Origin: a virus
Lineage: Duplodnaviria; Heunggongvirae; Uroviricota; Caudoviricetes
Reading direction: 5' to 3' (one strand)
DNA length: 64,000 nucleotides
Virus record (IMG/VR): IMGVR_UViG_3300005663_003096
Part shown: positions 2,757 to 39,402 of the stretch, one piece after another
How positions within the stretch are numbered: position 1 is the first letter of the stretch
Layout of the letters: every line of letters starts with the position of its first letter
The notes under the pieces: generated by a model
The model's input: the letters and a program-made list of their open reading frames with translations, nothing else
Databases searched by the model: none
What the model was told of the DNA's origin: nothing
Program-made: the position numbers and the translations under genes

Positions 2757-2832
2757 TGGCATCCGCAGCGAGGATCGAACTCGCGTCTTCGGGGTGAGGT
2801 CCCGGTATTCTGACCAATTGAACTATGCGGAC
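2757..2832 (-). tRNA. tRNA-like gene, probably tRNA-Glu(CUC), atypical anticodon arm (C33, 27:43 mismatch); possible pseudo-tRNA
   Basis: Reverse complement GTCCGCATAGTTCAATTGGTCAGAATACCGGGACCTCACCCCGAAGACGCGAGTTCGATCCTCGCTGCGGATGCCA folds as a cloverleaf. It has a 7-bp acceptor stem (G1:U72), D-arm GTTC/GAAT, T-arm GCGAG-TTCGATC-CTCGC, discriminator G and an encoded CCA. The anticodon loop ACCTCAC carries C33. Confidence 0.45.
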
Positions 2833-2845
2833 GTGGTTGTGATTT

Positions 2846-2921
2846 TGGCATCTCCTACGAGTCTCGAACTCGTTTCTGCTGCTTGAAAGGCGGCTGTTCT
2901 AACCGGGTGAACTAAGGAGAC
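2846..2921 (-). tRNA. tRNA-Glu(UUC)-like gene, one C·A mismatch in the anticodon stem
   Basis: Reverse complement GTCTCCTTAGTTCACCCGGTTAGAACAGCCGCCTTTCAAGCAGCAGAAACGAGTTCGAGACTCGTAGGAGATGCCA folds as a cloverleaf. It has a 7-bp acceptor stem, D-arm GTTC/GAAC, a canonical anticodon loop CTTTCAA (U33, anticodon TTC, A37), a perfect T-arm ACGAG/CTCGT, discriminator G and an encoded CCA. It lies 13 nt from tRNA-like gene 1. Confidence 0.55.
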
Positions 2922-2931
2922 GTAAGGGCAT

Positions 2932-2955
2932 AAAAAAACCCGCCTCAGGGGCGGG
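2932..2955 (-). terminator. intrinsic terminator-like hairpin (CCCGCC-N-GGCGGG followed by a U7 tract) on the minus strand, 10 nt upstream of tRNA-Glu-like gene 2
   Basis: Plus strand reads AAAAAAACCCGCCTCAGGGGCGGG. On the minus strand this is a GC hairpin followed by UUUUUUU. Confidence 0.5.
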
Positions 2956-3223
2956 TGCATGGGTATCGGGCGCGAAACTGAACTCTGGCGTCAGCGCGTC
3001 TCTCGATACCCGTATTGTTCTTCCTGAAAGCGGAACATGATTTTCTTCCTTTGATTTGGATATCTTTTTCGCACAACTCAAAGGGTCCGTCAAGAATAAT
3101 TTTCGCAAGCATCGCAGGGCCACTTATCGAGGCATATATGTGGAAAACCCCAGATCATCGTTTTTCTAAAAAGGGTCACAGACTACCCTGACGGCAACCA
3201 TACCTGATAAAAGAGACCTCCTC

Positions 3224-3733
3224 ATGCTTTTTCTTGAAGTGCTCCTGCTCGCTGGGCTTTGCGTTGCGATCCTGAGATATAGCAGCATCGCCCTCGGCCG
3301 GCCCGACGCCATGCGCATCGAGCAAGCCGTGCTGACCAAACTACGCGCCGGAGCAGAGCTGGGCTTGCGTGAGGTCGATCTTCACCAAGCTGATTGGATC
3401 AGCGGACCGATGGCCGCGACCCTCACAGGAGATGCCGTTCATGAATTCACTCTTGATGGTGCCTCTACAATCAAGGTGAGCGATGGCCACTCAGCACATC
3501 GTCTCGTTGTGATCTGCAGTGACTGCGCACCGAGGTTCTATGCGGTGACAACCCGGCAGAACGGCACGCCACGGCTTTTGCCGGTGCTTGACCGATTGGT
3601 GTGGCGCGCGCCTGAGCTAGGGCAGATGCGGGAACTGGCCAATGTGCGCCTGGCCAATATGGACCGGGGGCGGGATTGGCGTGCTTTCATTGAAAAGCGC
3701 ATTAAAACCCATCTTGCACGCCGGGCCCACTGA
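3224..3733 (+). CDS. hypothetical protein with N-terminal hydrophobic segment (signal or TM)
   Basis: ORF of 169 aa starting at ATG. N-terminus MLFLEVLLLAGLCVAILRY is hydrophobic. Confidence 0.45.
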   Translation: MLFLEVLLLAGLCVAILRYSSIALGRPDAMRIEQAVLTKLRAGAELGLREVDLHQADWISGPMAATLTGDAVHEFTLDGASTIKVSDGHSAHRLVVICSDCAPRFYAVTTRQNGTPRLLPVLDRLVWRAPELGQMRELANVRLANMDRGRDWRAFIEKRIKTHLARRAH

Positions 3734-3753
3734 AGGGCCCTGCCTGCTGAAGA

Positions 3754-4347
3754 TCAGCTCGGCGCATTCACCATGCGGTTCAGCTGCATCGAGAGTGCCT
3801 GTGCGGAGGTGGTGACCTCCTTTTCAATGCTCAGGGTGATCTTGCCTAGCGATGCATCCATGAGCGCGATGCCGGCGTTCAAACTGCTTTCGATTTCGGC
3901 GCGTGTGCCATCGCTCATCTGATCTGCGTGCTGCGCCGCTGTCTGCATAAGCTTCAAAACTGTGCGCTCCACATGGTCGATGCAGACCAGCTGGCTTGAG
4001 GGGATCTCTTCGCGGGCGGCATCAATCTGGCGGCAGCGATCAACGAAAGGATAAGCGGCCTCTTCCAAGCCAAGACTGCGGCCAATGACCCGCACGGCCG
4101 CAAGATCGTCTCGACGGTCTTTAAGGGCGTAATATTTGGCTTCCGTGGCGAGGTAGCGCGCCTTCATCTCTTTGCGCAGGCGTCTTTGGTTTAGAAACTT
4201 GTAGATTGCGGCGCCGATCACCGCAGCACCGGTCGGGATGATCACGGCGCCAAGAAGGAGCAGAGTCTCTGGCGAAAACGCAGTAACTGCAAAAAGAACG
4301 GCAAAGAAGCTGACAATGAAAACGACTAAAGCTTCAGTAAGACACAT
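3754..4347 (-). CDS. hypothetical membrane protein (two N-terminal TM helices plus a cytoplasmic domain)
   Basis: ORF of 197 aa. N-terminal VVFIVSFFAVLFAVTAF…LLLLGAVIIPTGAAVIGAAIY gives two TM helices. Its start overlaps the stop of the upstream gene (ATGA at 4347). Confidence 0.5.
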   Translation of the reverse strand: MCLTEALVVFIVSFFAVLFAVTAFSPETLLLLGAVIIPTGAAVIGAAIYKFLNQRRLRKEMKARYLATEAKYYALKDRRDDLAAVRVIGRSLGLEEAAYPFVDRCRQIDAAREEIPSSQLVCIDHVERTVLKLMQTAAQHADQMSDGTRAEIESSLNAGIALMDASLGKITLSIEKEVTTSAQALSMQLNRMVNAPS

Positions 4348-5486: not shown

Positions 5487-6764
5487 TCAAGGACAGGGCT
5501 CCTCCACTCCCAGGGCTTTTCGCAGTGTGATCTCAACATTCTCACGGCAGGGCCCTTCTGATTTGAGCTTGAGATCATGCCCGCAAAGACCTCCGATAAC
5601 CTCGGCGAGGTTCTCAGTGTCAATCTCTGAAACAAAGGGCCCCTCTCCCATATCCATCACCGAGATCTCGATCTTATCGCCCAGCTGATCGAGGCAGGTG
5701 ACCCCCAGGCCATGATCAATGCCTACGCCCTGCCCTGTGCTGCGCGCGAGATCGGCCGAGATGATGCGGTCCAGCTCTCGGAGGTCCAGAGGTGCATAAC
5801 GGATGGCGTCCTGCCATTCGTTTGGCCTGTTGGTGCGGTCGATCACCTCAGTACCGGGCAAGGGCGTCGTTCCGCGGTCGAGCGGGAACGGCCCTGCCCC
5901 GTGTCGCGTTGCATAGGCCCGGGTCATATAGATGATCTCGAGATCGGTGATCTCGGCGTCTCGAGCGATGTCCACCATATTCTTGGCGCCAGTATGCGAC
6001 CGCGTCACGTGAGGGAATTCTCCGAGGTCCATATCGAGTTGCAACCCTTGGGCGCCCTCAAAGACAATGGCATCGCGATCGCCCAGGGCGCTATCCGACA
6101 TGATCGAGACATACTGCGTAAAGTGGCGCAGATCGTCATAAAATCGCTCAACGACTTCTGGGGCGTTGCCGAGAACAGGCTTTAAATGGTCTGGGATGCT
6201 ATCGAGACCAAGGGCTGCCAGGCGCTGCGGCACCCAAGAACTCGAAATCTCGTCGAGAAATCGTGCGAGGTCAGGCCGCCAAAGGTCATTCATGCAAAGC
6301 ATTGGCCCCTGCTCCTGCCGTTCCAAGGTCTCACCAAAGCCGAGACCACAAGATCCGTGCTTATCACCGCCGCGGAAAATCTCAGCTGCCTGATTGATGG
6401 CCATGTCCCAGGGTGTTGTCACCGCTGTGCGCGGATCGGCCGTGATCTGAATATCCTTTACGCCTTTGCGCGCGAGATCCTCGATCTCAGCAAAGAAGAC
6501 AATCGGATGAGATACAAAGAAGCGGGACAGATGGGTGGCGGCGCCTCGGAAGGATCCGGACCCGATGTGATGGAAGACATGGTGGCGGCCGTCAGCCATG
6601 GTGACGCCGTGGCCCGCCTGTGCGCCGCCATTGGAACGCACGACAGTGACCTGGCGCCCCTGCCCCTCAAGCTGCGCCGTGAGCGCATCTGTGGCCAGCC
6701 CCTTGCCTTCATCACCCCAGCCGGCGCCGATGATCCCACAGGCTTTGCGGATGTCATTTCCCAT
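5487..6764 (-). CDS. adenylosuccinate synthetase (PurA) family protein, divergent paralog
   Basis: Matches PurA signatures: GAGWGDEGKG (P-loop-like GDEGKGK), GGAQAGHGV, FEGAQGLQLDMDLGEFPHVTRSHT, RAYATRHGAGPFP and GVGIDHGLGV. It is 425 aa, clearly divergent from housekeeping PurA. Confidence 0.7.
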   Translation of the reverse strand: MGNDIRKACGIIGAGWGDEGKGLATDALTAQLEGQGRQVTVVRSNGGAQAGHGVTMADGRHHVFHHIGSGSFRGAATHLSRFFVSHPIVFFAEIEDLARKGVKDIQITADPRTAVTTPWDMAINQAAEIFRGGDKHGSCGLGFGETLERQEQGPMLCMNDLWRPDLARFLDEISSSWVPQRLAALGLDSIPDHLKPVLGNAPEVVERFYDDLRHFTQYVSIMSDSALGDRDAIVFEGAQGLQLDMDLGEFPHVTRSHTGAKNMVDIARDAEITDLEIIYMTRAYATRHGAGPFPLDRGTTPLPGTEVIDRTNRPNEWQDAIRYAPLDLRELDRIISADLARSTGQGVGIDHGLGVTCLDQLGDKIEISVMDMGEGPFVSEIDTENLAEVIGGLCGHDLKLKSEGPCRENVEITLRKALGVEEPCP

Positions 6765-8320: not shown

Positions 8321-8755
8321 TCAGTCGAGCTCGATCTCATCTTCAGGCTCGTCTTCGGGCTCATATCTCTGGATCCAATCCTCGATCGTCAGGACATGGG
8401 CCTCACTGGCAGCGGCGCCCAGGGGTCCGAAGGCGCCATGGCAGCCGCTCGAGCGCTGGGCCATTTTTTGGAACACGGCGGCTCCATAATTCTGAAGCTC
8501 TTCATCGGCCATCTCAGAAATTGCAGGATCGGGCTTGATGTCCTGTGCCTTGATATTTCCCATGACCACAGACCAGAGCGCCTCGGTCATCGAGGGTGCG
8601 ACCCATTCATCGGTCAGCTCCAGCGATCCGTCGAGAAGCCCGCCACCGCGCTTAGAAAGCTCCCGGAGAACCAGGGCTGGTACGGTGTTGAAATCCTCTT
8701 CTGAGAAGGCTTCGGGGTGTTTGGGATCAGGCATGATTGGCTCCGGTCTATGCAA
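8321..8755 (-). CDS. hypothetical acidic protein
   Basis: ORF of 144 aa with an acidic C-terminus (EPEDEPEDEIELD). Confidence 0.4.
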   Translation of the reverse strand: MHRPEPIMPDPKHPEAFSEEDFNTVPALVLRELSKRGGGLLDGSLELTDEWVAPSMTEALWSVVMGNIKAQDIKPDPAISEMADEELQNYGAAVFQKMAQRSSGCHGAFGPLGAAASEAHVLTIEDWIQRYEPEDEPEDEIELD

Positions 8756-8845
8756 GACACAACCCTACAAGAGGGCTGTGAAAAATCTTACAGTGATGCT
8801 CCTTCAAGGGCGTAATGCCCGGGCGTTTCCACCCGGACCACTGAC

Positions 8846-9769
8846 TCACAGCCGCTGGACGCCGCGACCCTGACCGGTCTTGGCCGGCACGCCCTTCAAG
8901 GCATTGGCCACGGTCAGTGCGGTCGAACCCGACCAGCTGGCGGCCACATCGGAGGCCATAGCGCCCTCGGTCACCTGGATCAGCGATACGACAGTCTCAA
9001 CCAGTGCGTTGACGTCCTCAAGCTGAATGGTGCGCTCAGGAAGGATCTGGCGCCAGGACGTGAGAACCTGATCGCGGCTCTGGCCCCAGTTGCAGTAGCC
9101 CTCGTTGACGAGAGCGATGTGGAAGACTTCCCAATCGCGCTGAACCATCCGGATGATGTCGGCCGCCGAGAGATCCGCTTCGACAGTGATGCCCAGAACC
9201 CGCTCGATCTCTGCTTTGGTCATGCCATCGTGGATCGGTTCATCGCCGATGGTGAAGAGATAGCCTTTGCGGCCGCGTTTCTCGATCGCATCGGCGCGGA
9301 CCTTGGTTGCGGCGAAAAGATGGGCCGATGAGTAGGATTCCCCGCCGTTGCCGCCCCCTGCCCCTTCAAGCCAGAGCTTGCGGGCCTGTTCAGCGACGCG
9401 AATATCGGCTTCGAACTGGGTTACCTGCAATGGCGCCCGGTCGGTTTTCGCATCCCCCACGCCCATGATCATGATATGCGGATCAGTGACCGGCTTGCGG
9501 TCATAGATCTGGGTCGCCAGGGTGTTGAGCCCGTCGCGCATCAGCTTCTCGGCAATCATACCCATGGAGCCGGTCACATCTGAGGCGAGGATGATCGGGG
9601 TCGACAGCGGGTTGTCCGCGGAATCCCGGCTTTCACGGAATTCAATTTTCGACGGGTCGAACTCGTCCTTCATGTTGCGCGATGTGAAAATCTGGCTTTG
9701 CGATTTACCCGCGGTGTTCTGTGCGGTGTAGCCGGCCCATGCCGAGCTGTCCCAGCGTCCATTTCCCAT
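8846..9769 (-). CDS. von Willebrand factor A (vWA) domain protein
   Basis: MIDAS-type motif ILASDVTGSMG (DxSxS) followed by a TxxxD-like segment. Start at the ATG at 9769, preceded by AAAGGAGATCTATC-ATG; the track ORF start at 9805 is upstream. Confidence 0.65.
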   Translation of the reverse strand: MGNGRWDSSAWAGYTAQNTAGKSQSQIFTSRNMKDEFDPSKIEFRESRDSADNPLSTPIILASDVTGSMGMIAEKLMRDGLNTLATQIYDRKPVTDPHIMIMGVGDAKTDRAPLQVTQFEADIRVAEQARKLWLEGAGGGNGGESYSSAHLFAATKVRADAIEKRGRKGYLFTIGDEPIHDGMTKAEIERVLGITVEADLSAADIIRMVQRDWEVFHIALVNEGYCNWGQSRDQVLTSWRQILPERTIQLEDVNALVETVVSLIQVTEGAMASDVAASWSGSTALTVANALKGVPAKTGQGRGVQRL

Positions 9770-9816
9770 GATAGATCTCCTTTTGTCTGGTCTTACATCC
9801 TGCATAGAATATTAAC

Positions 9817-9837
9817 TTGCACGTTGCAAGTTGTAAA
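9817..9837. promoter_or_regulatory. 21-bp perfect palindromic operator TAACTTGCA-cgt-TGCAAGTTA (plus an extra half-site TGCAAGTTAA at 9846-9856), upstream of the vWA gene
   Basis: Inverted repeat read directly from the sequence. A near-identical 21-mer recurs at 10899-10919. Confidence 0.6.
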
Positions 9838-9848
9838 ATGCAAGTTAA

Positions 9849-10865
9849 TTAGAGCGCGTAGACCCCCGCCCCATTTCCAGTGTATTTTGCAAAACGCCGG
9901 ACACCCCAGGCATCGGTCAGCGCCTTTTGCCATTTGCTGTAATCCGCGATCCCGTCTTTGCCGGGCGGCAGCATCAGCCAGTTGCGGATCGGCTCGGGCA
10001 GGCCCAGGCCGGAAAGCTGGCTCAAGGAGGCGGCCCCCATCGCCTCACATGTGGTGCGGCGGATCAACTCGAGATCAAGCGACGGATCCGCGGTCATGTC
10101 TTTAACGGCCATCTGGGGCGCGATCTGCAGGCTGCGGTTTGGCAACAACACCGGCCGCGTCCCGACATCTGTGGCAAAGCCCCAGCCCGCGACCAGGCGC
10201 ACCGCGTGAGTCTTGGGATCCACCATGACCGTATCGGGACCAATGGCGCCATGAACTTTACCAGCCCAGGTAAGCCAAGCAGCGATGTTCATCAGGCCCG
10301 AACAAAGCCAGGCGGCGTGTACAGGTTCCATTGGCCCGTCGCCTGACAGCAGATCGGCCAGTAGCACCTCCCCGTTCTGACGGCTGTGGGTGATCAATGT
10401 CTTGCCATCCACCAGATCGACGCGCGACTTGTTGCGTGGGAGGAACTTGCGCATCTGATCCTCCATCTTGGTATCGGCAAACTTGAAGCCCGAGAGATTG
10501 CGCAGCTCAGCTTCCGCGATATCCAAAAGATCGGCATCAAAAATCTGTGCAACACTGATGGGCCCTACCAGCAAAGTGCCGATGTCGGTCTCATGCTTTG
10601 ACAGGGTGCGCATGGCCTGTCGTCGGCCGTCGGCTTTGGTGAAGATGTATCGGGTCACCAGCATGGAGGGTTCGCCGCGGGCCGCATCGCGGAGCGTCAC
10701 CAGTTTGGCAAAAACATCGGCAGCCTTCGGATCCTGGCAATGATCCGGGTGCCAGCGGGCCGCGAGGGTGCGAAAAGACTTTTTGTCCGCCTTCTCATCC
10801 CCAGAGAAAATCTTGGACGCATCCCGCAATCCCATGTTTAGAATCTGCTCTGCATTGAGGTCCAT
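9849..10865 (-). CDS. J-domain (DnaJ-like, HPD motif) protein fused to an atypical kinase-like domain
   Basis: N-terminus FRTLAARWHPDHCQDPKAADVFAKL is a J domain with HPD. The C-terminal part carries HGAIGPDTVMVD … VRLVAGWGFA, resembling the catalytic loop and DFG-like region of RIO/APH-type kinases, with the catalytic Asp apparently replaced. Start at 10865 (TAAAGGAGATCAAA-ATG). Confidence 0.55.
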   Translation of the reverse strand: MDLNAEQILNMGLRDASKIFSGDEKADKKSFRTLAARWHPDHCQDPKAADVFAKLVTLRDAARGEPSMLVTRYIFTKADGRRQAMRTLSKHETDIGTLLVGPISVAQIFDADLLDIAEAELRNLSGFKFADTKMEDQMRKFLPRNKSRVDLVDGKTLITHSRQNGEVLLADLLSGDGPMEPVHAAWLCSGLMNIAAWLTWAGKVHGAIGPDTVMVDPKTHAVRLVAGWGFATDVGTRPVLLPNRSLQIAPQMAVKDMTADPSLDLELIRRTTCEAMGAASLSQLSGLGLPEPIRNWLMLPPGKDGIADYSKWQKALTDAWGVRRFAKYTGNGAGVYAL

Positions 10866-14978: not shown

Positions 14979-15533
14979 TCAACCGGCGTCCGGCTCAGTC
15001 TTTCCAAAGATATTTGGCGATAAATACAGCCCGCGGCGCCAGAACCAGTGCGGGGGCTTATCATAGTTGAACGTGGGGATAGCTCTCCACGAGCCCCTGG
15101 CAACAACTTCCTCAATGACATTCCGTGCAGCCGTTTCGAAGTGTTGACAACGCGTAATCTCCTCATCGATCCTGAAGGTAACGTCATAGGCCCAGACCTG
15201 AGACGCATAGCGCAATGTCACAGCAGTTTCCGAGTGAGCTTCAATGGAGCCATCAGGGTAAAATTCGCATGAAACGTTCATGGGTCGGAACGTGTCATGC
15301 TGAGTATGCTCAACCCAGGCCACCACTTTAATGTCGCCAACAGCCCTTACCTTGATGCGCTCTTCTGCCAAGAGCTTTTCGCCGGGTGCGGTCGCTGCCA
15401 GGAAGACGTCGGCTGCCCTATTTTTGGGGGATCGTATCTCGACCCCAGCGAACCACATGATGCCATAGACGACTGCGATATAGGCCACTATACGCGCAAT
15501 CACCTCCCAAATTTCCATACGTTTTTCGCTCAT
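14979..15533 (-). CDS. membrane-anchored protein, paralog A of a tandem pair
   Basis: N-terminal TM (IVAYIAVVYGIMWFAGV). C-terminal region ITRCQHFETAARNVIEEVVARGSWRAIPTFNYD is homologous to the C-terminus of 15585..16151. Confidence 0.5.
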   Translation of the reverse strand: MSEKRMEIWEVIARIVAYIAVVYGIMWFAGVEIRSPKNRAADVFLAATAPGEKLLAEERIKVRAVGDIKVVAWVEHTQHDTFRPMNVSCEFYPDGSIEAHSETAVTLRYASQVWAYDVTFRIDEEITRCQHFETAARNVIEEVVARGSWRAIPTFNYDKPPHWFWRRGLYLSPNIFGKTEPDAG

Positions 15534-15584: not shown

Positions 15585-16151
15585 TCAGTGGTATTTGAAT
15601 TCCGGGATGGATTTCCAAAAGCCATCCTTCACCGCATTCTCCATGCCGCGCGCGGCCGCGATCTCGAAATGCGCACAACGTGCGATCGCCTCGTCGATCT
15701 TGCCGGTCACTTTGTAGTTCGAGAGATTGGTGCTCCAACGCCCGCTCACAAGAACTTCTGCATAGGCATCGACGCCTCCATCCCGGCTGAAAACGCAGGT
15801 GACCTTGGTCCGACGTGTGTCGCGATATTTTCGACCGCTCACCATAGCCACGATGGTTTTATCCTCGCCGCGGCCGGTCAAGATCATCCCTTCCTCGAGC
15901 AAACCGCCGCTGTCTCGGGTCGCATTCAGGAAATTCTCAGCAGCTTTGGTCCGAGATGTGCGCACATCAGCCCCAATTGCCCAGGCGAATCCGAGGGTGA
16001 TCACAAAGACGGAACCCAGAACGAAGCAGGCGCCAATGATGCTGGTAATGAAGTCTTTCACAGGCGTGTTTTGCTCAGGAAGGCCCCGTTCGAAATCTGG
16101 TTTATCTGTCGATGGCATTGGCTTTCTCTTCTCATGGATATTCGACAGCAC
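15585..16151 (-). CDS. membrane-anchored protein, paralog B of a tandem pair
   Basis: N-terminal TM (IIGACFVLGSVFVITLGFAWAIG). C-terminus IARCAHFEIAAARGMENAVKDGFWKSIPEFKYH matches paralog A. Confidence 0.5.
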   Translation of the reverse strand: MLSNIHEKRKPMPSTDKPDFERGLPEQNTPVKDFITSIIGACFVLGSVFVITLGFAWAIGADVRTSRTKAAENFLNATRDSGGLLEEGMILTGRGEDKTIVAMVSGRKYRDTRRTKVTCVFSRDGGVDAYAEVLVSGRWSTNLSNYKVTGKIDEAIARCAHFEIAAARGMENAVKDGFWKSIPEFKYH

Positions 16152-16414
16152 CCTTTGGTGCGGTCTTCTTGGCGATCAGCTATGCCAGGAAATCAGGCGC
16201 GCAATCCTAAATGTGAAGGTTCTCGCAGGCTCTTGCACTCCCTTCGGAAATGCTGCCGCCTGTCATTCCCTGGCGGGAGTGACTTGCCTCTCACACCTCT
16301 TCAAAGGTGTTGCCGGCTGCACACCGGCTGTACCGGTGTGCATATATGCGAAAATAAAATATAATGACGTATTGCGCTTGCGAAAAACGCTGCCTATTTA
16401 GGTGGTATCAGAGA

Positions 16415-16488
16415 GGCCCCGGAGCTCGTAAGAAGAGTCCCGGTCTTTAAAACCGGTTGTCTGGGGGCGGAGCCCAGCGGGGTCACCA
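16415..16488 (+). tRNA. non-canonical tRNA-like element with anticodon UUA (would read the UAA stop codon); D- and T-loops lack the conserved GG and TΨC
   Basis: GGCCCCG-GA-GCTC-GTAAGAA-GAGT-C-CCGGT-CTTTAAA-ACCGG-TTGT-CTGGG-GGCGGAG-CCCAG-CGGGGTC-A-CCA. It has a 7-bp acceptor stem (one G·U), a 4-bp D stem (one G·U), a perfect 5-bp anticodon stem with loop C-U-UUA-A-A, a perfect 5-bp T stem, discriminator A and an encoded CCA. Two copies of the TGCGAAAA motif lie 25-70 nt upstream. Confidence 0.3.
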
Positions 16489-16575
16489 TCTGAATTGATG
16501 AGCTGCTAGTAAGACAAGCATCGTGATCGATCTCTCCTCTACACCCAGGTAACGCCCATAGAGGCTAGTAAGAGG

Positions 16576-17241
16576 TTGCGGGATGCGTGCTTTCGACGCG
16601 TCACTGTGAAGATGCTTGTTTACAGACTCTGGGACACAGCACCAGTGGGAGAGGTCCGTCAGGGACCGAGGATCAAGGAAGCCGAAGTGAATATCTACGA
16701 GATGTATATTCTTAATGGGGACGTCGACTTTTGGGTCATGCGTCAGACGTGGGGGAAAACCGTTGCTCGCGTAGTCCATGTCGATGAACTTACGACACCG
16801 GCGCCATACTACGGCACTCCCAAGGTTCTGGTCGACCTTTACGACATCGAAAGCGGCGCACTTCTAAAAAAGAATGAGCGGCTTAGCTGCCCTGGGACCT
16901 CGCAGTATTCGCAGGTGGATATTTCAACGTGGTCGCCTGCCGAAGCACTGAGAACCGTCACCAGCACCCCTCCTGATCCTGCCTTTCGTAAGCGCATGGA
17001 GGCGGCTGATAAGAGGGCGAAGCAAAACGCGGCTCGAAAGCAGAAAAGGAGGGAAGAAAGCGAAGCCAAGCCACGCTACTACTTCGCCTCAAACCCGAGG
17101 TTTCTCAACGAGAAGGATAAACTCTTCGGCGAAAACTTCTATGTCCGCTGGGACCCGGATAAGAAGCTTTGGTGGTGTCTGCAAGAGGACACAGCAACAC
17201 AGGCTTCACTGAAGGAAATGGGCTGCGAATTCCAGAGCTGA
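16576..17241 (+). CDS. hypothetical protein (start uncertain)
   Basis: ORF of 221 aa. The C-terminal region (YYFASNPRFLNEKDKLFGENFYVRWDPDKKLWWCLQED) looks protein-like. Confidence 0.4.
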   Translation: MRDACFRRVTVKMLVYRLWDTAPVGEVRQGPRIKEAEVNIYEMYILNGDVDFWVMRQTWGKTVARVVHVDELTTPAPYYGTPKVLVDLYDIESGALLKKNERLSCPGTSQYSQVDISTWSPAEALRTVTSTPPDPAFRKRMEAADKRAKQNAARKQKRREESEAKPRYYFASNPRFLNEKDKLFGENFYVRWDPDKKLWWCLQEDTATQASLKEMGCEFQS

Positions 17242-17437
17242 AAGGAAGAGTTCATGGCAGCCATATAGAGGCGCCTGCGAAAAATACGGATTGACCTCTT
17301 TACATAATTCAGGCCTTCCCTATATTCAGAACACGGCAAACAGAACCCCCTGCCCCAACGCAGGCCATTTGAAAGGACAGATCATGCGCAAGGATTAAAC
17401 CAGCGTCTCACTCCGCAGTAAGAACGACACGGCGCCT

Positions 17438-17905
17438 TTGGGCGACGATGTATATCGTGGGTTTGCCCACGACCTGAAGACCACCATCCCGGCACCGAGT
17501 TCTGCTCAGGTCGAAGGGCATATTGGTGACGATCTTCGTCTCTATTCCATTCTCAGAACAGATATCACCATGTCGCAAGGCAAGGCGAATGCCCAATGTG
17601 GTCACGCCTATGTCGCAGCTGCGATCGGTGCTTTGGGCACGCCTGAAGGCGATGCCTATGCCCGTCTGATCCCTGGAACCAAGATCTGCCTCGATGGCGG
17701 ATCGCTTCAGAAGATGCAGCTCCTGATCGAGCAGCTCTCCCTGCAGGGCATTCCCTGCTTTCCCATCATCGACCGCGACCATGTGGAGCTGCCTGACTTT
17801 GATGGCTCTCCGATCCTGACGGCCATTGGCCTCGGGCCCTTCACGCGTGCCGATACCCCCCGCGCCCTGCGCAAACTCAAGCTTTTCAAAGGACTTCAAG
17901 CATGA
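17438..17905 (+). CDS. peptidyl-tRNA hydrolase, PTH2 (archaeal/eukaryotic) family
   Basis: LYSILRTDITMSQGKANAQCGHAYVAAA matches the PTH2 signature (R.DL.MGKGK.AAQ..HA). The downstream part aligns with the rest of the Pth2 fold (…GIPCFPIIDRDHVELPDFDGSPILTAIGLGP…). The N-terminal boundary is uncertain. Confidence 0.7.
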   Translation: MGDDVYRGFAHDLKTTIPAPSSAQVEGHIGDDLRLYSILRTDITMSQGKANAQCGHAYVAAAIGALGTPEGDAYARLIPGTKICLDGGSLQKMQLLIEQLSLQGIPCFPIIDRDHVELPDFDGSPILTAIGLGPFTRADTPRALRKLKLFKGLQA

Positions 17906-18907: not shown

Positions 18908-19326
18908 TGACGACGACAACTACGAAAACAACATTCCCTGCAGTATCTGAAGAGATGAAGGCTGCGGCAGCACGCTACCCCGGTTGCCTCGCTGCCATGA
19001 TGGAGCTCCAGAAAGCGACCGCCTTCAAGGGCTGGTATACGGTCTCCAACGAGGCAGAACAGTCTGCCTACTTCGCTGATAAGCTCGAGTTGAAAACAAA
19101 GGAAGACTACATCGAGATGCGCGATGCTTTGAAAGCATGGCTGCGCCTCATGGAGACCACGCAGCGCAGCTTGAAAGAGATGACATCGCGTCCGGGGGAT
19201 CAGTCTGGGCCCCAGATGCACAAACACTTCGGGGCTGGTCTGGTGACCCAGCTCATTGAGATCCGCCGCGCCGGGAAAATCTGGTCGTCAAATCAGGCAA
19301 AGACAAAAGTCGAAGTAGCGGCATGA
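18908..19326 (+). CDS. hypothetical protein
   Basis: Start at the ATG preceded by AAAAAGGAATTTGGAC (Shine-Dalgarno). MTTTTTKTTFPAVSEEMKAAAARYPG…. Confidence 0.45.
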
Positions 19327-19556
19327 ATAAGCTGGCGGCGGGCTATACCCGCCGCCCTAGCTATTTATGGTTCGACCGGATCTTCGTTTTGACCGGGATG
19401 CGGCCTTCCATGCTCAACGTGATCCGTAGAGTACGGCGGGGTATCATGCACTTTGATCAGGCTGGGATCGTACCCGATATCTGCATTGTCATCGACCGAG
19501 GTGTCGGGCTGTTGGGGTTTAGACAATGTCGCTCTCCTTCGCAGTTACTGCTGAAA

Positions 19557-23582: not shown

Positions 23583-23636
23583 TTAAAACGCTTAAACTGA
23601 GTAGCGATATAACTTTTGAAACTTACGGACGAATTT

Positions 23637-25340
23637 ATGCTGAAATCGAAAGATGCGTGGCAAGAATATTTCAATGAAGTCAGCTTCCCCCTAAGGGATG
23701 TGAGCAAACATGTCAGCACAGCGGTGTTTGCAGTGTACGATGGAGTGTGCATTTTTTGTAAAGAGCGAAAGGCTGAACACGTAGACCACATCGTTCCGCA
23801 CTCCCTGGGTGGGCCTGATAGATCCGATAATTTCGCTGCATCCTGCACGCGGTGTAATTTGCGAAAACACGATAAATTACTGCCTCTACCGGTTCTCGGA
23901 ATCGCGCTCCTGGAGGCGCGCAGGAAAGCTGAAGATGTAGAGCAAATGATTGCGGAGCTCGAAAATGGGGTTCAATCGACATACAAAGCATATCGATCTA
24001 AAGGGGAACGTGCCGTTCTATTGCACGAAAGCTATATTCTTCATAGATGTGAAGACGGGGGGGGCGTGAGGCCTGTCGCTCGGATCTATTACAAGAATGA
24101 TCCTCGATCTCGGCTAGGTCATCACCATCAGAATGGCGATTTCCCGGATATTCGCTTCTCATACGGCCGCAAATTTCTGAAGTCCAAGATGGCTCACGCC
24201 CTTTCTCCGGGGCTCCCTCTGGAGCCCGAAGAATACAAGAACCCTGAGGACTTCGAGACGCTAAACCTGCTTAGGGATATGGAGCCCGACCATTGGGGGC
24301 GAAGTATCGTGGACTACGCGGTACACCTAACCACCAATCGACATCCCAAGATGAGCGACTACCTCCTCTTCAACGAGACACGGTTCCGCCCTGGAGGTCT
24401 ATTCCTCGCCAAGACGCCCGGAGGTGAGGGAATTGGATACGATATCAGCTTGGCTGATCGTGAGGTGACATTCGATGACGCAGTCCGCTTTCAGACATTC
24501 ATGGATGCACAGGAAGATTTCTGGGCGGAACTTCCCGCTGAACTTCATCATTGCCTTCCAGCCGCTGCTGCTTTGGGGGGCGCTCAGCCGAAGATATGCA
24601 TCGACTGGATGGATGAGCTATGGGTGCTAAAATTGCCAAACGAGCGTCACGTTATCAACATGGCCGCGGCCGAGGCGGGCTGTCTTGACCTTTGCGAAAT
24701 GGCAGGCATTGCCGTACCTGATCGAGAGGTAAGATCCTTTGGACCCCGCTCGAGTGTGTTATTGGTCAAGCGCTTTGACAGAGTTTCCGCGCCTGGAGGC
24801 CGCATTCGCCGCCATATGATATCCTCACTCACACTGCTTGAGCGTCATGAGATGGACCGAGGGGTATCTGGTTATGCTGATATCTACCTAGCACTTCGGG
24901 CTTCCGGAGCGCCCAGTGTCGTCGGTGAGGATCTTTACCGTCGAATGCTGATGAATGTTCTTTGCGGCAATACCGACGATCATTATAGGAACCACGCTTT
25001 TTTCCAGAAAGATGACGGATCATTCACACCAACGCCCGTTTACGATGTCACTCCGACTATTCAAGTATCCCCATCTCGCAGGTTGTTCCTGCATCTCGGG
25101 AGGGCCGGGTGTGGCCGGGATGCGACAGTTGAAAATGCAGTGTCAGCGGCAAGCTCTCTGGATGTCGAACGAGATAGGGCCATTGAGATTGCCAATGAGC
25201 TTAGCTTGATGGTCGCTAGAAGCTGGAAAGATGCGATGAGACGGCATGGCGCGAGTGATGTCTGTATCGAAAGGATGGCGACGAGCTTCTCTGAGGCTGG
25301 CAATACAATCGCCTGCAATGACCCGGGTTTGAACATGTGA
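23637..25340 (+). CDS. HNH endonuclease domain fused to a HipA-like Ser/Thr kinase
   Basis: N-terminal CIFCKERKAEHVDHIVPHSLGGPDRSDNFAASCTRCNLRKHDK is a canonical HNH. The C-terminal part carries the HipA catalytic motifs GAQPKICIDW and CGNTDDHYRNHAFF. Local GC is lower than the flanks. The track ORF starts at TTG 23616; the first ATG is at 23637. Confidence 0.65.
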   Translation: MLKSKDAWQEYFNEVSFPLRDVSKHVSTAVFAVYDGVCIFCKERKAEHVDHIVPHSLGGPDRSDNFAASCTRCNLRKHDKLLPLPVLGIALLEARRKAEDVEQMIAELENGVQSTYKAYRSKGERAVLLHESYILHRCEDGGGVRPVARIYYKNDPRSRLGHHHQNGDFPDIRFSYGRKFLKSKMAHALSPGLPLEPEEYKNPEDFETLNLLRDMEPDHWGRSIVDYAVHLTTNRHPKMSDYLLFNETRFRPGGLFLAKTPGGEGIGYDISLADREVTFDDAVRFQTFMDAQEDFWAELPAELHHCLPAAAALGGAQPKICIDWMDELWVLKLPNERHVINMAAAEAGCLDLCEMAGIAVPDREVRSFGPRSSVLLVKRFDRVSAPGGRIRRHMISSLTLLERHEMDRGVSGYADIYLALRASGAPSVVGEDLYRRMLMNVLCGNTDDHYRNHAFFQKDDGSFTPTPVYDVTPTIQVSPSRRLFLHLGRAGCGRDATVENAVSAASSLDVERDRAIEIANELSLMVARSWKDAMRRHGASDVCIERMATSFSEAGNTIACNDPGLNM

Positions 25341-28755: not shown

Positions 28756-29892
28756 TCAGGCAGAGAAGCGCGCGCGCGACGCTGACAGGGCGTCCACGAG
28801 CCCTTCATGGACCTGTCCCGCCTCGCAGTCCTCTCCCAAGCTCACGAGCTCTGAGAGCGCCGCAGAGCGCCCAGGACGACCCTCTAAGCCAAAGGCGCGG
28901 CGCACGTCCGCCAAAGTCTCCATGGTGAGCACATGGGCGCGCTTGCGGCCTTCTTCGAGGATATGGTCTACCAACTCGATATCAGCTGCGGCTTCGGCGC
29001 GCCGCGCCCGCATGGGCGCCAGCATCTCTTGCAAGATCCCGTCCAGACGCCGCTTCAATACCATGTCGCCGAGCCCACCGGCGCGGTACTGATCCTTGAG
29101 GTCCGCTACAGCACCGCTGTCTGGATCAAAAGCATCGAGCATGGCAAAGACCACATTGCCCTCGACCTTGCCGGGGTCCGAGACCTTCAGATGGCCTGGA
29201 TCGGTGAACATGCGCATGACAGCCGCGCGGATCTCTTCCGGGCTGTCGCGCAGCGCGATGGCATTGCCGGCGGATTTGGACATCTTGCCTGCCCCGTCGA
29301 TGCCCGGCAGCCGCGGCGCGTTGCTCTGCATCAAGGTTGGAGAGACCAGGACCTTGCGCCCAGCCATGCGGTTCACCTTCCCCGTGATCTCACCGGTGAT
29401 CTCGACAAGCGGCGCTTGGTCGGCGCCTGCGGGCACGATGTCTGCGCCAAAGGCGGTGATGTCGGCCGCCTGGCTGACCGGGTAGCAAAGAAAGCCCGCC
29501 GGGGTGCCATCGCCGAAGCCGCGCTGGGTGATCTCTTCACGGATCGTGGGAATGCGCATCAGACGCGGCACGGTGACCAGGTTCATATAGAGCATGGTCA
29601 GCTCGTTGAGTGCGGGCAGATCGGACTGGCGCACGATGGTCACCCGCTCAGGGTCGATGCCGGCCGCGATGTAATCAAGCACCACCTCGCGCACATTGGC
29701 CGCCACATCTGCGGCGCGCCCGGCGTTGTCCGTCAGCGCCTGCATGTCGGCGACCAGGATGGTCACGTCGTTCTTGTCCTGCAGGGCGACGCGCGCCTGA
29801 AGGGTCCCGGCGAGATGGCCGAGATGCAGCGCACCGGTGGGCCGGTCGCCGGTGAGGATGGTTCTGCCTTCGAGGGTAGAGAGATCTTGCAT
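28756..29892 (-). CDS. trpS: tryptophanyl-tRNA synthetase
   Basis: Class I motifs TGDRPTGALHLGH (HIGH-type) and KMSKS. TrpRS-specific segments LVADMQALTD (D-x-Q/H-A-x-T) and YPVSQAADITAFGADIVPAGADQ (compare E. coli YPVLMAADILLY…VPVGEDQ). Start at the ATG at 29892 (MQDLSTLEGRTILTG). Confidence 0.8.
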   Translation of the reverse strand: MQDLSTLEGRTILTGDRPTGALHLGHLAGTLQARVALQDKNDVTILVADMQALTDNAGRAADVAANVREVVLDYIAAGIDPERVTIVRQSDLPALNELTMLYMNLVTVPRLMRIPTIREEITQRGFGDGTPAGFLCYPVSQAADITAFGADIVPAGADQAPLVEITGEITGKVNRMAGRKVLVSPTLMQSNAPRLPGIDGAGKMSKSAGNAIALRDSPEEIRAAVMRMFTDPGHLKVSDPGKVEGNVVFAMLDAFDPDSGAVADLKDQYRAGGLGDMVLKRRLDGILQEMLAPMRARRAEAAADIELVDHILEEGRKRAHVLTMETLADVRRAFGLEGRPGRSAALSELVSLGEDCEAGQVHEGLVDALSASRARFSA

Positions 29893-30004
29893 GGTCTTGT
29901 CCTTTATGGAGAGAGGACAGCCGCATGATGGGAAGGGTCTTTCAGGACATCTCAAGCCGCATCACGCGGCCGATCCTGGGGTTGGTCACAGGAATTGGGC
30001 CGCC

Positions 30005-38151: not shown

Positions 38152-39402
38152 ATGAATAAGAACAACCACAAAGACCTCGATATCCCTCAAGAACAAGGCA
38201 TGGATCCTCTGGACCACCGCGTGCTCGCGCGCCGCCTCGATCTCTATCACATCGAAGAAGATGCGCCGGGCATGATCTATTGGCACGCCGCCGGTTGGCA
38301 GATCTACCGCGAGCTCGAAGATTATATCCGCGGCCGCATGCGGGGCTTAGGTTATGGTGAGGTGCGCTCGCCGCAGCTGTTGCCCCAGTCCCTCTGGGAA
38401 GCCTCCGGTCACTGGGAGAAGTTCGGCGAGAACATGTTCGCCGTGCCGGCGCGCGAGGAAGGCGGCCGCGATATGGCCCTGAAGCCGATGAGCTGCCCGT
38501 GTCATTTGCAGATATTTAACTCGGATCTGCGCTCTTGGCGTGATCTGCCGATGCGCATTGCCGAGTTCGGCCAGTGCCACCGCGATGAGGCTTCGGGCTC
38601 GATGCATGGGCTCATGCGCACCAAGGCTTTCGAGCAGGACGATGCTCATGTGATCTGCGATCCCGGTCAGGTACGCGGCGAGGTTGCGCGTTTCGTTGAG
38701 CTGCTGAAGGAAGTCTATGCCGCTCTGGGCTTTGCTGATTTCGAGGTGGCGCTGTCGCTGCGCCCCGAAAAGCGCGCCGGCAATGATGCGGATTGGGATC
38801 ACGCGGAGCAGGAACTGCTGGGAGCGGCCCTCTCCTGCGGGCTCGACCCGAAGCTGCAGCTCGGCGAAGGTGCCTTCTACGGGCCCAAGCTGGAGTTCGC
38901 GCTGCGCGACAAGAAAGGCCGCTCCTGGCAGTGCGGCACCATCCAGCTCGATATGGTCCTGCCAGGCCGACTGGGCGCATCCTATGTTGGCAAGGACGGT
39001 GCCAAACATGAGCCGGTGATGCTGCACCACGCTGTGTTGGGGTCCTTGGGACGCTTCATTGGTATTCTGCTGGAGCATTGCGAAGGCCGCCTGCCCCTCT
39101 GGCTGGCGCCGGTACAGGTGGCGGTCCTGCCCATTGGGGATGATCAGCGCGACGCTGCTGTGGATGTCATGGACCAGCTGCGCGCCGCGGGGCTGCGCCC
39201 TGCCCTTTTTGATCAATCCGAAGGGCTCGGCCGCCGGATCGTCATGGTCCGCGATCAGTTGATCCCGGTTCAGATCGTGATTGGGAAACTGGAGGTGGAG
39301 CGTGGCGAAGTGATGCTGCAGATCGGCGGGGGCAAAGAGGCGCTGTCGCCAGCCGCGGCCATTGCGCGGATGGGTGAGCTTGTCGGGGTGCCGAAGGGGT
39401 GA
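38152..39402 (+). CDS. threonyl-tRNA synthetase paralog, catalytic plus anticodon-binding domains only (N-terminal TGS/editing domains absent)
   Basis: Aligns with E. coli ThrRS from about residue 225 onward: LDLYHIEEDAPGMIYWHAAGWQIYRELE…KPMSCPCHLQIFNSDLRSWRDLPMRIAEFGQCHRDEASGSMHGLMRTKAFEQDDAHV…QCGTIQLDMVLPGRLGASYVG. 416 aa versus ~640 for full-length ThrRS. Confidence 0.75.
   Translation: MNKNNHKDLDIPQEQGMDPLDHRVLARRLDLYHIEEDAPGMIYWHAAGWQIYRELEDYIRGRMRGLGYGEVRSPQLLPQSLWEASGHWEKFGENMFAVPAREEGGRDMALKPMSCPCHLQIFNSDLRSWRDLPMRIAEFGQCHRDEASGSMHGLMRTKAFEQDDAHVICDPGQVRGEVARFVELLKEVYAALGFADFEVALSLRPEKRAGNDADWDHAEQELLGAALSCGLDPKLQLGEGAFYGPKLEFALRDKKGRSWQCGTIQLDMVLPGRLGASYVGKDGAKHEPVMLHHAVLGSLGRFIGILLEHCEGRLPLWLAPVQVAVLPIGDDQRDAAVDVMDQLRAAGLRPALFDQSEGLGRRIVMVRDQLIPVQIVIGKLEVERGEVMLQIGGGKEALSPAAAIARMGELVGVPKG

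Follow-up and report, generated by a model that had tools for sequence, protein, structure and literature searches.

A tRNA gene with a UUA anticodon precedes a PTH2 gene with an early in-frame stop

We analyzed a 64,000-nucleotide (nt) stretch of DNA, here called the window, from a Caudoviricetes virus (IMG/VR record IMGVR_UViG_3300005663_003096), focusing on a tRNA gene with a UUA anticodon and on a downstream gene for the peptidyl-tRNA hydrolase PTH2 that carries an early in-frame TAA codon. The tRNA gene is 74 nt long (16415–16488, plus strand), with its anticodon at 16447–16449, an encoded A73-CCA end, and a non-canonical elbow. As the initial annotation had noticed, two copies of the motif TGCGAAAA (16347–16354 and 16379–16386, plus strand) lie upstream; they form a promoter-associated block that is kept in all relatives of the window clade. 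The motif is not a feature of the island, as the initial annotation had it, but occurs throughout the window (41 copies versus 2.8 expected). A further copy immediately precedes the sigma70-like promoter of PTH2, and this position together with the window-wide copies marks TGCGAAAA as a genome-wide promoter-associated motif, which probably serves as a promoter or activator site specific to the phage or its host. The copies are often paired, 26–34 nt apart, upstream of genes, and the motif is also present in related contigs L001 and L029 (related contigs and loci are given L numbers throughout).

Taking the motif and sigma70-like promoter ahead of PTH2 as a model, we infer a tRNA promoter at 16370–16400 (plus strand), consisting of a −35-like TTGCGC (16370–16375), a 17-nt spacer, and a −10-like TATTTA (16395–16400), with a predicted transcription start near 16407; TAT(C/T)TA is kept at the −10-like site in the clade alignment. 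The tRNA is flanked on the plus strand by a 5′ leader, TCAGAGA (16408–16414), and a complementary 3′ trailer, TCTGAA (16489–16494). The leader, kept in all clade members, pairs with a trailer of the form (C/T)TCTGA, both are conserved across the clade alignment, and insertions occur directly after the trailer. One such strain-variable insertion (16495–17275, plus strand) lies between the tRNA and PTH2 in the window; it carries an accessory gene (16679–17241, plus strand) with a GTG start, the ribosome-binding site AAGGAAG, and a product without assigned function. The insertion is missing in L009, L011, and L014, where the tRNA is followed by ~12 nt, then TGCGAAAA, and then the PTH2 gene. Because the tRNA abuts the PTH2 promoter in these three genomes, we regard the accessory gene as an insertion and PTH2 as the true syntenic anchor. 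Synteny via the accessory gene was tried and dropped, as its homologues sit in unrelated contexts with no tRNA upstream.

The PTH2 promoter region (17276–17326, plus strand) begins with TGCGAAAA at 17276–17283, followed at 17299–17326 by TTTACA, a 16-nt spacer, and TATATT. The translation start (17372–17398, plus strand) comprises the ribosome-binding site AAAGGA (17372–17377), an ATG (17384–17386), the codons CGC, AAG, and GAT, and then an in-frame TAA (17396–17398). From this stop, codon 5 of the gene, the frame is open through an N-terminal extension and the PTH2 domain, which begins at the residues LRLY (17531), to a TGA at 17903–17905 (rest of the frame, 17399–17905, plus strand). An open reading frame (ORF) finder placed the start at TTG 17438, which is not the beginning of the PTH2 frame; the ribosome-binding site and ATG 17384 lie upstream of it in frame. 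Within the window, a convincing ribosome-binding site and ATG followed by an early TAA were found at PTH2 only. The domain matches Pfam PTH2 (PF01981) at 49.8 bits (cut-off 23; E = 4.8e-13; profile positions 2–115 of 115) and aligns with PDB 2zv3, the solved structure of the 115-residue M. jannaschii Pth2 (E = 4.8e-5). Residue 2 of 2zv3 falls at the LRLY strand, so translation must start upstream of LRLY.

The interrupted gene is not unique to the window. An M-x-K-D-TAA leader is also present in L009, L010, L011, and L014, and the frame of the PTH2 domain is open in all five window-clade genomes. The domain differs from that of L011 by 17 synonymous and 5 non-synonymous codon changes; judged by these changes, it is under purifying selection and the enzyme is maintained. 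A PTH2 protein identical to that of the window has been recorded in a marine sediment metagenome, with a longest contig of 375,787 bp.

The cloverleaf is a real fold that standard detectors miss

Written by segment, the tRNA reads GGCCCCG GA GCTC GTAAGAA GAGT C CCGGT CTTTAAA ACCGG TTGT CTGGG GGCGGAG CCCAG CGGGGTC A CCA. All 21 of its 21 stem pairs can form, two of them as G-U (2:71 and 10:25), and the cloverleaf energy of −31.1 kcal/mol ties with the unconstrained minimum free energy. The molecule has the build of the Rfam tRNA family RF00005, with stems of 7, 4, 5, and 5 base pairs (bp), a 7-nt anticodon loop (C-U-UUA-A-A) with U33 and a purine, A37, and a discriminator A and CCA end written in the DNA; the variable loop is 4 nt, and positions 8–9 are GA. 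Thus, the complete 74-nt cloverleaf with encoded CCA, 5-bp anticodon stem, and UUA anticodon proposed in the initial annotation was borne out. The same holds for its reading of the D loop, GTAAGAA, as lacking G18G19 (there is a single G) and of the T loop, GGCGGAG, as departing from TΨC. The elbow carries G8, G14, A18 G19, and G54 G55 C56 G58, where the conserved tertiary nucleotides are U8, A14, G18G19, T54-Ψ55-C56, and A58.

Because of these elbow nucleotides (G8, G14, A18, G54, G55, and G58), standard detectors miss the gene: ARAGORN at its default setting and Rfam at gathering scores reported only two tRNA-Glu genes in the window. The best sub-threshold Rfam match, and the best in the tRNA clan, was tRNA-Sec at 17.9 bits (gathering score 47), and the 29-bit gathering threshold of the tRNA model was not reached. 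With the threshold lowered to 90%, ARAGORN called tRNA-Stop(tta) at exactly 16415–16488. Covariance scoring, the check suggested in the initial annotation and carried out here with Rfam models, thus gave a divided answer: canonical homologues described below pass, with scores up to 54 bits, and the window tRNA stays at background, below 18 bits.

The initial annotation had also raised the concern that such a fold might arise by chance in 64 kb, and a folding z-score of only −1.02 and the background covariance scores are what a fortuitous intergenic fold would give. We scanned both strands of the whole window with a self-written geometric cloverleaf search (at least 19 of 21 pairs) and obtained three matches, namely the window tRNA with 21 pairs and the two genuine tRNA-Glu genes with 20 each. 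Among 300 dinucleotide-preserving shuffles, none reached 21 pairs, and 20 pairs occurred at 0.043 per shuffle. This shuffle test, together with the conservation and covariation presented below, refutes a chance origin, to which we assign a negligible probability; the cloverleaf is a real fold.

The tRNA is invariant among close relatives

Contigs of the window clade were gathered in two ways: two contigs from ENA through the protein encoded downstream, and five from the metagenome collection through a loop-only pattern that fixed 21 loop bases and left the other 53 bases of the tRNA free to vary. All 74 nt of the tRNA are identical in the seven other metagenomic genomes (L006, L007, L009, L010, L011, L013, and L014), and the 53 unconstrained bases show zero variation. 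Identity of the flanking genes to those of the window is 73–84% in L009, L011, and L013, 83–93% in L014, 93–97% in L010, and ~99% in L006 and L007. Differences cluster just outside the tRNA, at 16391–16399 upstream, in a one-base indel right after the CCA, and in a 59-nt indel at 16506–16564. By this pattern of change, the window tRNA is under purifying selection.

This invariance bears directly on the notion that the locus combines a decaying tRNA pseudogene with a PTH2 pseudogene that has acquired a nonsense mutation. The window tRNA is the most degenerate member of its family, and an early stop is the usual mark of a pseudogene. Nevertheless, the tRNA has accumulated no substitutions in 74 nt beside flanks that differ by up to ~27%, and every stem is preserved; purifying selection acts on the PTH2 domain, whose frame is open in five of five clade genomes; and, as described below, many lineages have a stop at this position, in the form of different codons. 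We therefore consider decay very improbable.

Outside the clade, direct similarity searches with the tRNA gave nothing. Exact and loop-pattern scans of IMG/VR did not find the window tRNA, and a protein scan of IMG/VR was also empty; a tRNA-family pattern had no match in the genome-contig collection; and megablast of the tRNA region against phages and blast of the tRNA against E. coli genomes each returned zero matches. Because there were no blast matches in E. coli genomes, the isotype of the window tRNA is not assignable by similarity.

The window tRNA belongs to a family of CUA tRNAs found upstream of PTH2

More distant relatives were recruited through PTH2 synteny, independently of the tRNA sequence, by inspecting contigs that encode PTH2 homologues (51–71% identity) and by a protein scan of bacterial genomes. 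At these loci a tRNA of the same build lies ~90–250 nt upstream of the PTH2 start (170–320 nt before the conserved domain), and its anticodon is CUA throughout. Such CUA tRNAs were found in L015 (729-kb contig), L016 (260-kb contig), L017–L019, L020, L022 (Loktanella sp. DJP18), L024 (a Thalassovita metagenome-assembled genome), and L031–L033; none of the very large relative contigs (260–729 kb), which may derive from a huge phage, a megaplasmid, or a chromosome, is present in IMG/VR. The shared build includes GA at positions 8–9 (GAA in L024), a GCTC/GAGC D stem, a short D loop (7–9 nt), a variable loop of 4 nt, and A73 followed by an encoded CCA.

We aligned eight sequences (the window tRNA and those of L015, L016, L017, L020, L022, L024, and L031) and found 98.2% of cells paired, compared with 36–48% in slid controls. 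Compensatory changes occur at 13 of the 21 pairs, including 6 of 7 in the acceptor stem and all 5 in the anticodon stem, and none of 500 shuffles reached the level of the alignment. Thus, covariation backs all four stems.

The family also connects the eroded elbow of the window tRNA to ordinary tRNAs. Its T loops form a gradient from TTCGAAC or TTCGAAG (L016 and L022) through TTCGGAT (L031) and GTCGGAG (L015, L017, L020, and L024) to GGCGGAG in the window, and the D loop keeps GG in every relative where the window has AG. ARAGORN at default settings calls the tRNAs of L016, L017, L020, L022, L024, and L031, and misses those of L015 and the window; Rfam tRNA scores are 54.1 bits for L016, 53.5 for L031, and 39.5 for L015. 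From these comparisons, the window tRNA is the most derived member of a genuine tRNA family. The label 'tRNA-Pyl' that ARAGORN puts on the relatives reflects their CUA anticodon only. As an additional observation, L015 has genes for an RtcB RNA ligase and an RpoD-like sigma factor of full length near its tRNA–PTH2 pair (446–1975 and 8521–10422).

Stop codon identity follows the anticodon

The PTH2 genes of most of these lineages also begin with a few codons and a stop, and the stop matches the tRNA. Leaders ending in TAG accompany CUA tRNAs in at least five lineages: MS-TAG in L017, MTNM-TAG in L020, ML-TAG in L022, MTM-TAG in L024, and MM-TAG in L031. Two bacterial loci, L021 (Roseivivax halodurans; MTRFQ-TAG) and L023 (Paracoccus sp. 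ME4 plasmid; MTRMQ-TAG), have tRNA-like sequences in which manual inspection places CUA in irregular 6- or 8-nt loops and for which no convincing fold was obtained. In L021 (R. halodurans JCM 10272 contig29), a SAM-I/IV riboswitch (3665–3788; 47.3 bits, gathering score 41.1) immediately precedes the tRNA-like sequence and TAG-gated PTH2 gene of this bacterial genome.

The pairing of UUA with TAA was found twice, with unrelated tRNAs: once in the window family, and once in L030, where a PTH2 59% identical to that of the window has a leader ending in TAA beside a different, canonical tRNA(UUA) that scores 37.3 bits with Rfam. The third stop is represented by the cultured Agrobacterium jumbo phage Atu_ph07, whose PTH2, gp256, reads MIGEHF-TGA-INYEE...KLRIYSIVRDD, with TGA at codon 7. 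The only suppressor tRNA of this phage has the anticodon UCA (PMC6102473 and supplement), and we located its gene at record positions 430713–430787. The RefSeq coding sequence of gp256 begins 36 nt inside the region that aligns with PTH2, so that the early stop has cut the annotated gene short. Thus, the identity of the stop codon follows the anticodon through all three stops: TAG with CUA, TAA with UUA, and TGA with UCA. In the cultured Sinorhizobium jumbo phage Phosso (L037), PTH2 has the leader MKY-TAG-VEEK.... Two intergenic regions of Phosso (19109–19415 and 24024–24670) contain tRNA-like 3′ halves (GGTTCGAATCC...CCACCA) that ARAGORN does not call; these could represent tRNA genes that are unusual or split.

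In all lineages examined, the leader and PTH2 share one reading frame. We surveyed 11 loci for start codons and for the base that follows the stop. Of the 11, 7 have no ATG, GTG, or TTG in the interval from the stop to LRLY, which is only five codons long in L017, L020, and L024. Given the lack of a start codon ahead of the first conserved strand in these seven loci, production of PTH2 appears, from the reading frames, to depend on the suppressor tRNA. The base following the stop is A at all 11 surveyed loci, and G in L030, L031, and Phosso. Classic context studies in E. coli found that a 3′ purine favors nonsense suppression.

The tRNA as a probable suppressor dedicated to PTH2

The window tRNA has the two attributes of a nonsense suppressor: its anticodon is complementary to a stop codon, and a PTH2 gene with the matching in-frame TAA lies nearby. 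These attributes, and the joint change of anticodon and stop across relatives, support the proposal of the initial annotation that the element is a suppressor or recoding tRNA. We consider it probable, on the comparative evidence, that the window tRNA is a functional ochre suppressor that reads UAA at PTH2 codon 5 and that full-length PTH2 depends on it.

Several observations weigh against this interpretation. The window tRNA lacks U8, A14, G18, T54, Ψ55, and A58, its covariance scores lie at background (E = 0.74 even in a 500-nt search), and RNase P, EF-Tu, and the ribosome may therefore not handle it efficiently. The N-terminal extension that follows the TAA has no clear constraint at the amino-acid level, and in four of the five window-clade genomes a TTG 14 codons past the TAA could permit some independent initiation. 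L015 and L016 keep the CUA tRNA with an ordinary PTH2 start, so PTH2 is perhaps not its sole target. For Phosso, neither a scan of the first 50 kb of the genome nor blast found a cognate suppressor tRNA; L029 has the leader MKY-TGA followed directly by ATG, and no tRNA was found within 5 kb. Finally, the PTH2 genes of XacN1, RsoM2USA, and phiM12 have ordinary starts without a gating stop. Gating is therefore restricted in distribution and, among the genes compared, is limited to the Atu_ph07/Phosso clade and marine Rhodobacteraceae-type elements.

Some of these observations are shared by a competing explanation, in which M-x-x-x-stop is a separate regulatory leader ORF, PTH2 is initiated downstream, and the tRNA serves another use, such as general read-through of host or phage stops. 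The TTG of the window clade, the ATG of L029, and the ungated PTH2 genes beside CUA tRNAs in L015 and L016 fit this explanation, as does the fact that 25 of 91 greedily chosen window ORFs end in TAA, leaving many other sites exposed to a suppressor. Independent initiation does not require that the stop track the anticodon through three stops, however, nor does it sit well with a leader that is always in frame or with the seven loci that have no canonical start before the first conserved strand. We regard a separate leader ORF as unlikely.

The initial annotation had also raised a decoy for an anticodon nuclease, and nothing we found points to one. More broadly, a non-decoding tRNA-like RNA, acting as anticodon-nuclease bait or as a processing signal, would agree with the non-canonical elbow, the sub-threshold scores from tRNA models, and the complementary leader and trailer, which suggest a processing structure. 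On the other side, there is no host tRNA with a UUA anticodon to mimic, the relatives grade into canonical tRNAs, U33, A37, and the encoded CCA are retained, and the anticodon co-varies with a stop codon in the neighboring gene. A non-decoding role is accordingly quite improbable, though less so than decay of the locus.

If the tRNA acts as a suppressor, it would be transcribed from its own promoter, processed to ~74 nt, and charged, and the charged tRNA would compete with release factor at the UAA of ATG CGC AAG GAT TAA. Full-length PTH2 would appear only if the charged suppressor outcompeted release factor at codon 5. Because of this competition at the leader UAA, PTH2 output would reflect the ratio of suppressor activity to termination activity. 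One option is that the arrangement works as a safety valve that scales hydrolase supply to read-through stress, as read-through should raise stalling and peptidyl-tRNA drop-off. Another is that it senses poor termination, analogous to the in-frame UGA by which prfB senses RF2. The change of codon in the window family could have proceeded by a C34-to-U substitution that gives UUA, which by wobble should still read UAG, after which the codon would be able to drift from TAG to TAA.

One lead on the origin and charging of the window tRNA comes from tRNA-Trp. The nearest annotated canonical tRNAs are tRNA-Trp, at weak similarity, and the canonical relative in L016 has weak similarity to phage tRNA-Trp and to amber suppressor tRNAs (E ~1e-2). 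The anticodons CCA, CUA, and UUA form a chain of single-step changes. The window encodes a tryptophanyl-tRNA synthetase (TrpRS; 28879–29895, minus strand; TIGR00233 trpS, 227.5 bits versus a cut-off of 176.75), a speculative candidate for the charging enzyme; near its CUA tRNA, L017 encodes an enzyme with 70% identity to this TrpRS. Natural phage TrpRS:suppressor-tRNA pairs, one with A73, have been described (bioRxiv 10.1101/2025.10.30.685624). Given the weak tRNA-Trp similarity, the single-step chain, the TrpRS genes in the window and L017, and these described pairs, the window tRNA may have arisen from tRNA-Trp, its anticodon passing from CCA through CUA to UUA, and the phage TrpRS may charge it.

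Taking these points together, we lean slightly toward a broader model: a translational circuit in alphaproteobacterial jumbo phages and related mobile elements in which a suppressor and stop pair that co-evolved through three stops gates PTH2 and acts as a homeostat or sensor of termination failure in infection. In this model the window tRNA would be a natural ochre suppressor that works despite the loss of most tertiary contacts in its elbow, and it and the phage TrpRS might form an orthogonal pair.

Relation to known stop-reading systems

Phage suppressor tRNAs, PTH2 in jumbo phages, and stop-gated phage genes are each already known (PMC6102473, PMC5852040, PMC7824862, 10.1101/2025.10.30.685624); our literature search found no paper that ties a suppressor tRNA to an early stop in PTH2. 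The closest precedents are Atu_ph07 tRNA(UCA) and XacN1 tRNA(CUA), which are likewise stop-reading tRNAs in standard-code genomes of large phages that carry PTH2 and other translation genes (PMC6102473, PMC5852040, PMC7824862). The XacN1 and Atu_ph07 papers report no target gene for their suppressor tRNAs (PMC5852040, PMC6102473), whereas a target is identified here, for Atu_ph07 as well (gp256). The window tRNA further differs from both in reading UAA, in its degenerate elbow, and in adjoining its target, and XacN1 PTH2 is ungated.

Stop-recoded phages (TAG to Gln or TGA to Trp, with 'code change' TrpRS:tRNA pairs) resemble the window in having a phage suppressor tRNA and sometimes a cognate phage aminoacyl-tRNA synthetase. 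There, too, in-frame stops tie translation of particular genes to the phage's own tRNA (bioRxiv 10.1101/2021.08.26.457843; 10.1101/2025.10.30.685624). Unlike these phages, the window has no genome-wide or block-wide recoding; one early stop in one gene is the evident target. The window is 57% G+C and 90% coding under the standard code, and the 91 greedily chosen ORFs end in TGA (49), TAA (25), or TAG (17). We rejected reassignment of TAA across the window on the basis of this coding density and the 25 ORFs that TAA ends. We know of no phage in which UAA is reassigned.

The prfB gene for RF2 offers a functional analogy: it too is a translation-factor gene with an early in-frame stop whose synthesis hinges on competition with release factor (PMC12421855). 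The analogy is functional only, since prfB escapes its stop by a +1 frameshift and senses its own product, whereas here a dedicated suppressor tRNA would act and the product is a hydrolase.

The 2–6-codon ORF that ends in a stop and is tied to peptidyl-tRNA hydrolase capacity also recalls the bar minigenes of phage lambda. Those minigenes are free-standing and toxic when Pth is limiting; the mini-ORF here differs in being fused in frame to the hydrolase gene.

tRNA-Pyl and tRNA-Sec share with the window tRNA a stop-reading anticodon and an elbow that departs from the canonical one. tRNA-Pyl is characterized by a CUA anticodon, a 6-bp anticodon stem, a 3-nt variable loop, one nt between the acceptor and D stems, and a PylRS/pylBCD neighborhood. 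We rejected this identity for the window tRNA, which has UUA, a 5-bp anticodon stem, a 4-nt variable loop, and two nt (GA) at positions 8–9. The likeness to tRNA-Pyl or mitochondrial tRNAs noted in the initial annotation is therefore superficial: Pyl hallmarks are absent, and close relatives have G18G19 and TTCGAA loops. The sole class II synthetase found is a threonyl-tRNA synthetase (ThrRS) core, whose PylS_Cterm match of 32.9 bits is far below the 178-bit cut-off. tRNA-Sec has a UCA anticodon, acceptor and T stems of 8/5 or 9/4, and a long variable arm; it was rejected given the 7/5 stems, 4-nt variable loop, and UUA anticodon of the window tRNA, which the Sec model scores at 17.9 bits (gathering score 47).

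The window element is best classed as a phage nonsense-suppressor tRNA with three unusual traits: ochre specificity, an eroded yet absolutely conserved elbow, and a dedicated target. That target, the phage's own PTH2, gives phage suppressor tRNAs a specific gene on which their role can be tested, and Atu_ph07, which grows on Agrobacterium tumefaciens C58, offers one instance in culture that is open to experiment. Automated annotation truncates gated PTH2 genes. A UAA-reading tRNA with a stripped-down elbow bears on what the bacterial ribosome tolerates, and is relevant to the search for orthogonal tRNA/synthetase pairs and to genetic-code expansion.

Other features of the locus and window

The 3′ flank of the tRNA is a hot spot for insertion, with the accessory cassette present in some strains only and the 59-nt indel at 16506–16564 lying between GCTAGTAAGA repeats. 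IS605/TnpB elements occur upstream of the tRNA in L006 and between the tRNA and PTH2 in L030. The IS605 gene in L006 had suggested a TnpB/omega-RNA relationship for the element, which we dropped: L006 1–1539 matches nothing in the window, and the two sequences become homologous again at window position 16005, so that the TnpB segment, ~410 nt before the tRNA, reflects either an inserted insertion sequence (IS) or a junction in the contig.

The window contains many small genes without known function; its PHROG matches and distant protein similarities point to jumbo phages of Caulobacter, Brevundimonas, and Pseudomonas. Other translation genes are present. The ThrRS core (38152–39402, plus strand) has catalytic and anticodon-binding domains and no TGS or editing domain; with this core and a full TrpRS encoded, no tRNA-Thr or tRNA-Trp gene was found in the window. 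The two tRNA-Glu genes called by ARAGORN at default and by Rfam at gathering score have UUC and CUC anticodons (2757–2832 and 2846–2921, minus strand). In this region (2757–3107, minus strand), two TGCGAAAA motifs precede the tRNAs, and between the motif pair and the tRNA genes lie a 15-codon mini-ORF, MFRFQEEQYGYRETR, with three Glu codons (~3038–2991) and a terminator-like hairpin with a T run. The mini-ORF and hairpin resemble a leader-peptide attenuator.

In a 574-residue protein encoded at 23616–25340 (plus strand), an HNH endonuclease domain is joined to a C-terminal kinase domain resembling HipA. Aminoacyl-tRNA synthetases are the targets of HipA kinases, and the fusion may matter in a genome with so many translation genes. 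A divergent adenylosuccinate synthetase (PurA-like) homologue at 5487–6764 (minus strand) has a weak, partial PurZ match of 39 bits (cut-off 300) and on this score does not qualify as PurZ. Upstream of the tRNA, two adjacent paralogous genes (14979–15533 and 15585–16151, both minus strand) encode small proteins that have a membrane helix at the N terminus and share the motif ...RC(Q/A)HFE(T/I)AA...; on related contigs, gene callers picked an overlapping plus-strand ORF over these paralogues.

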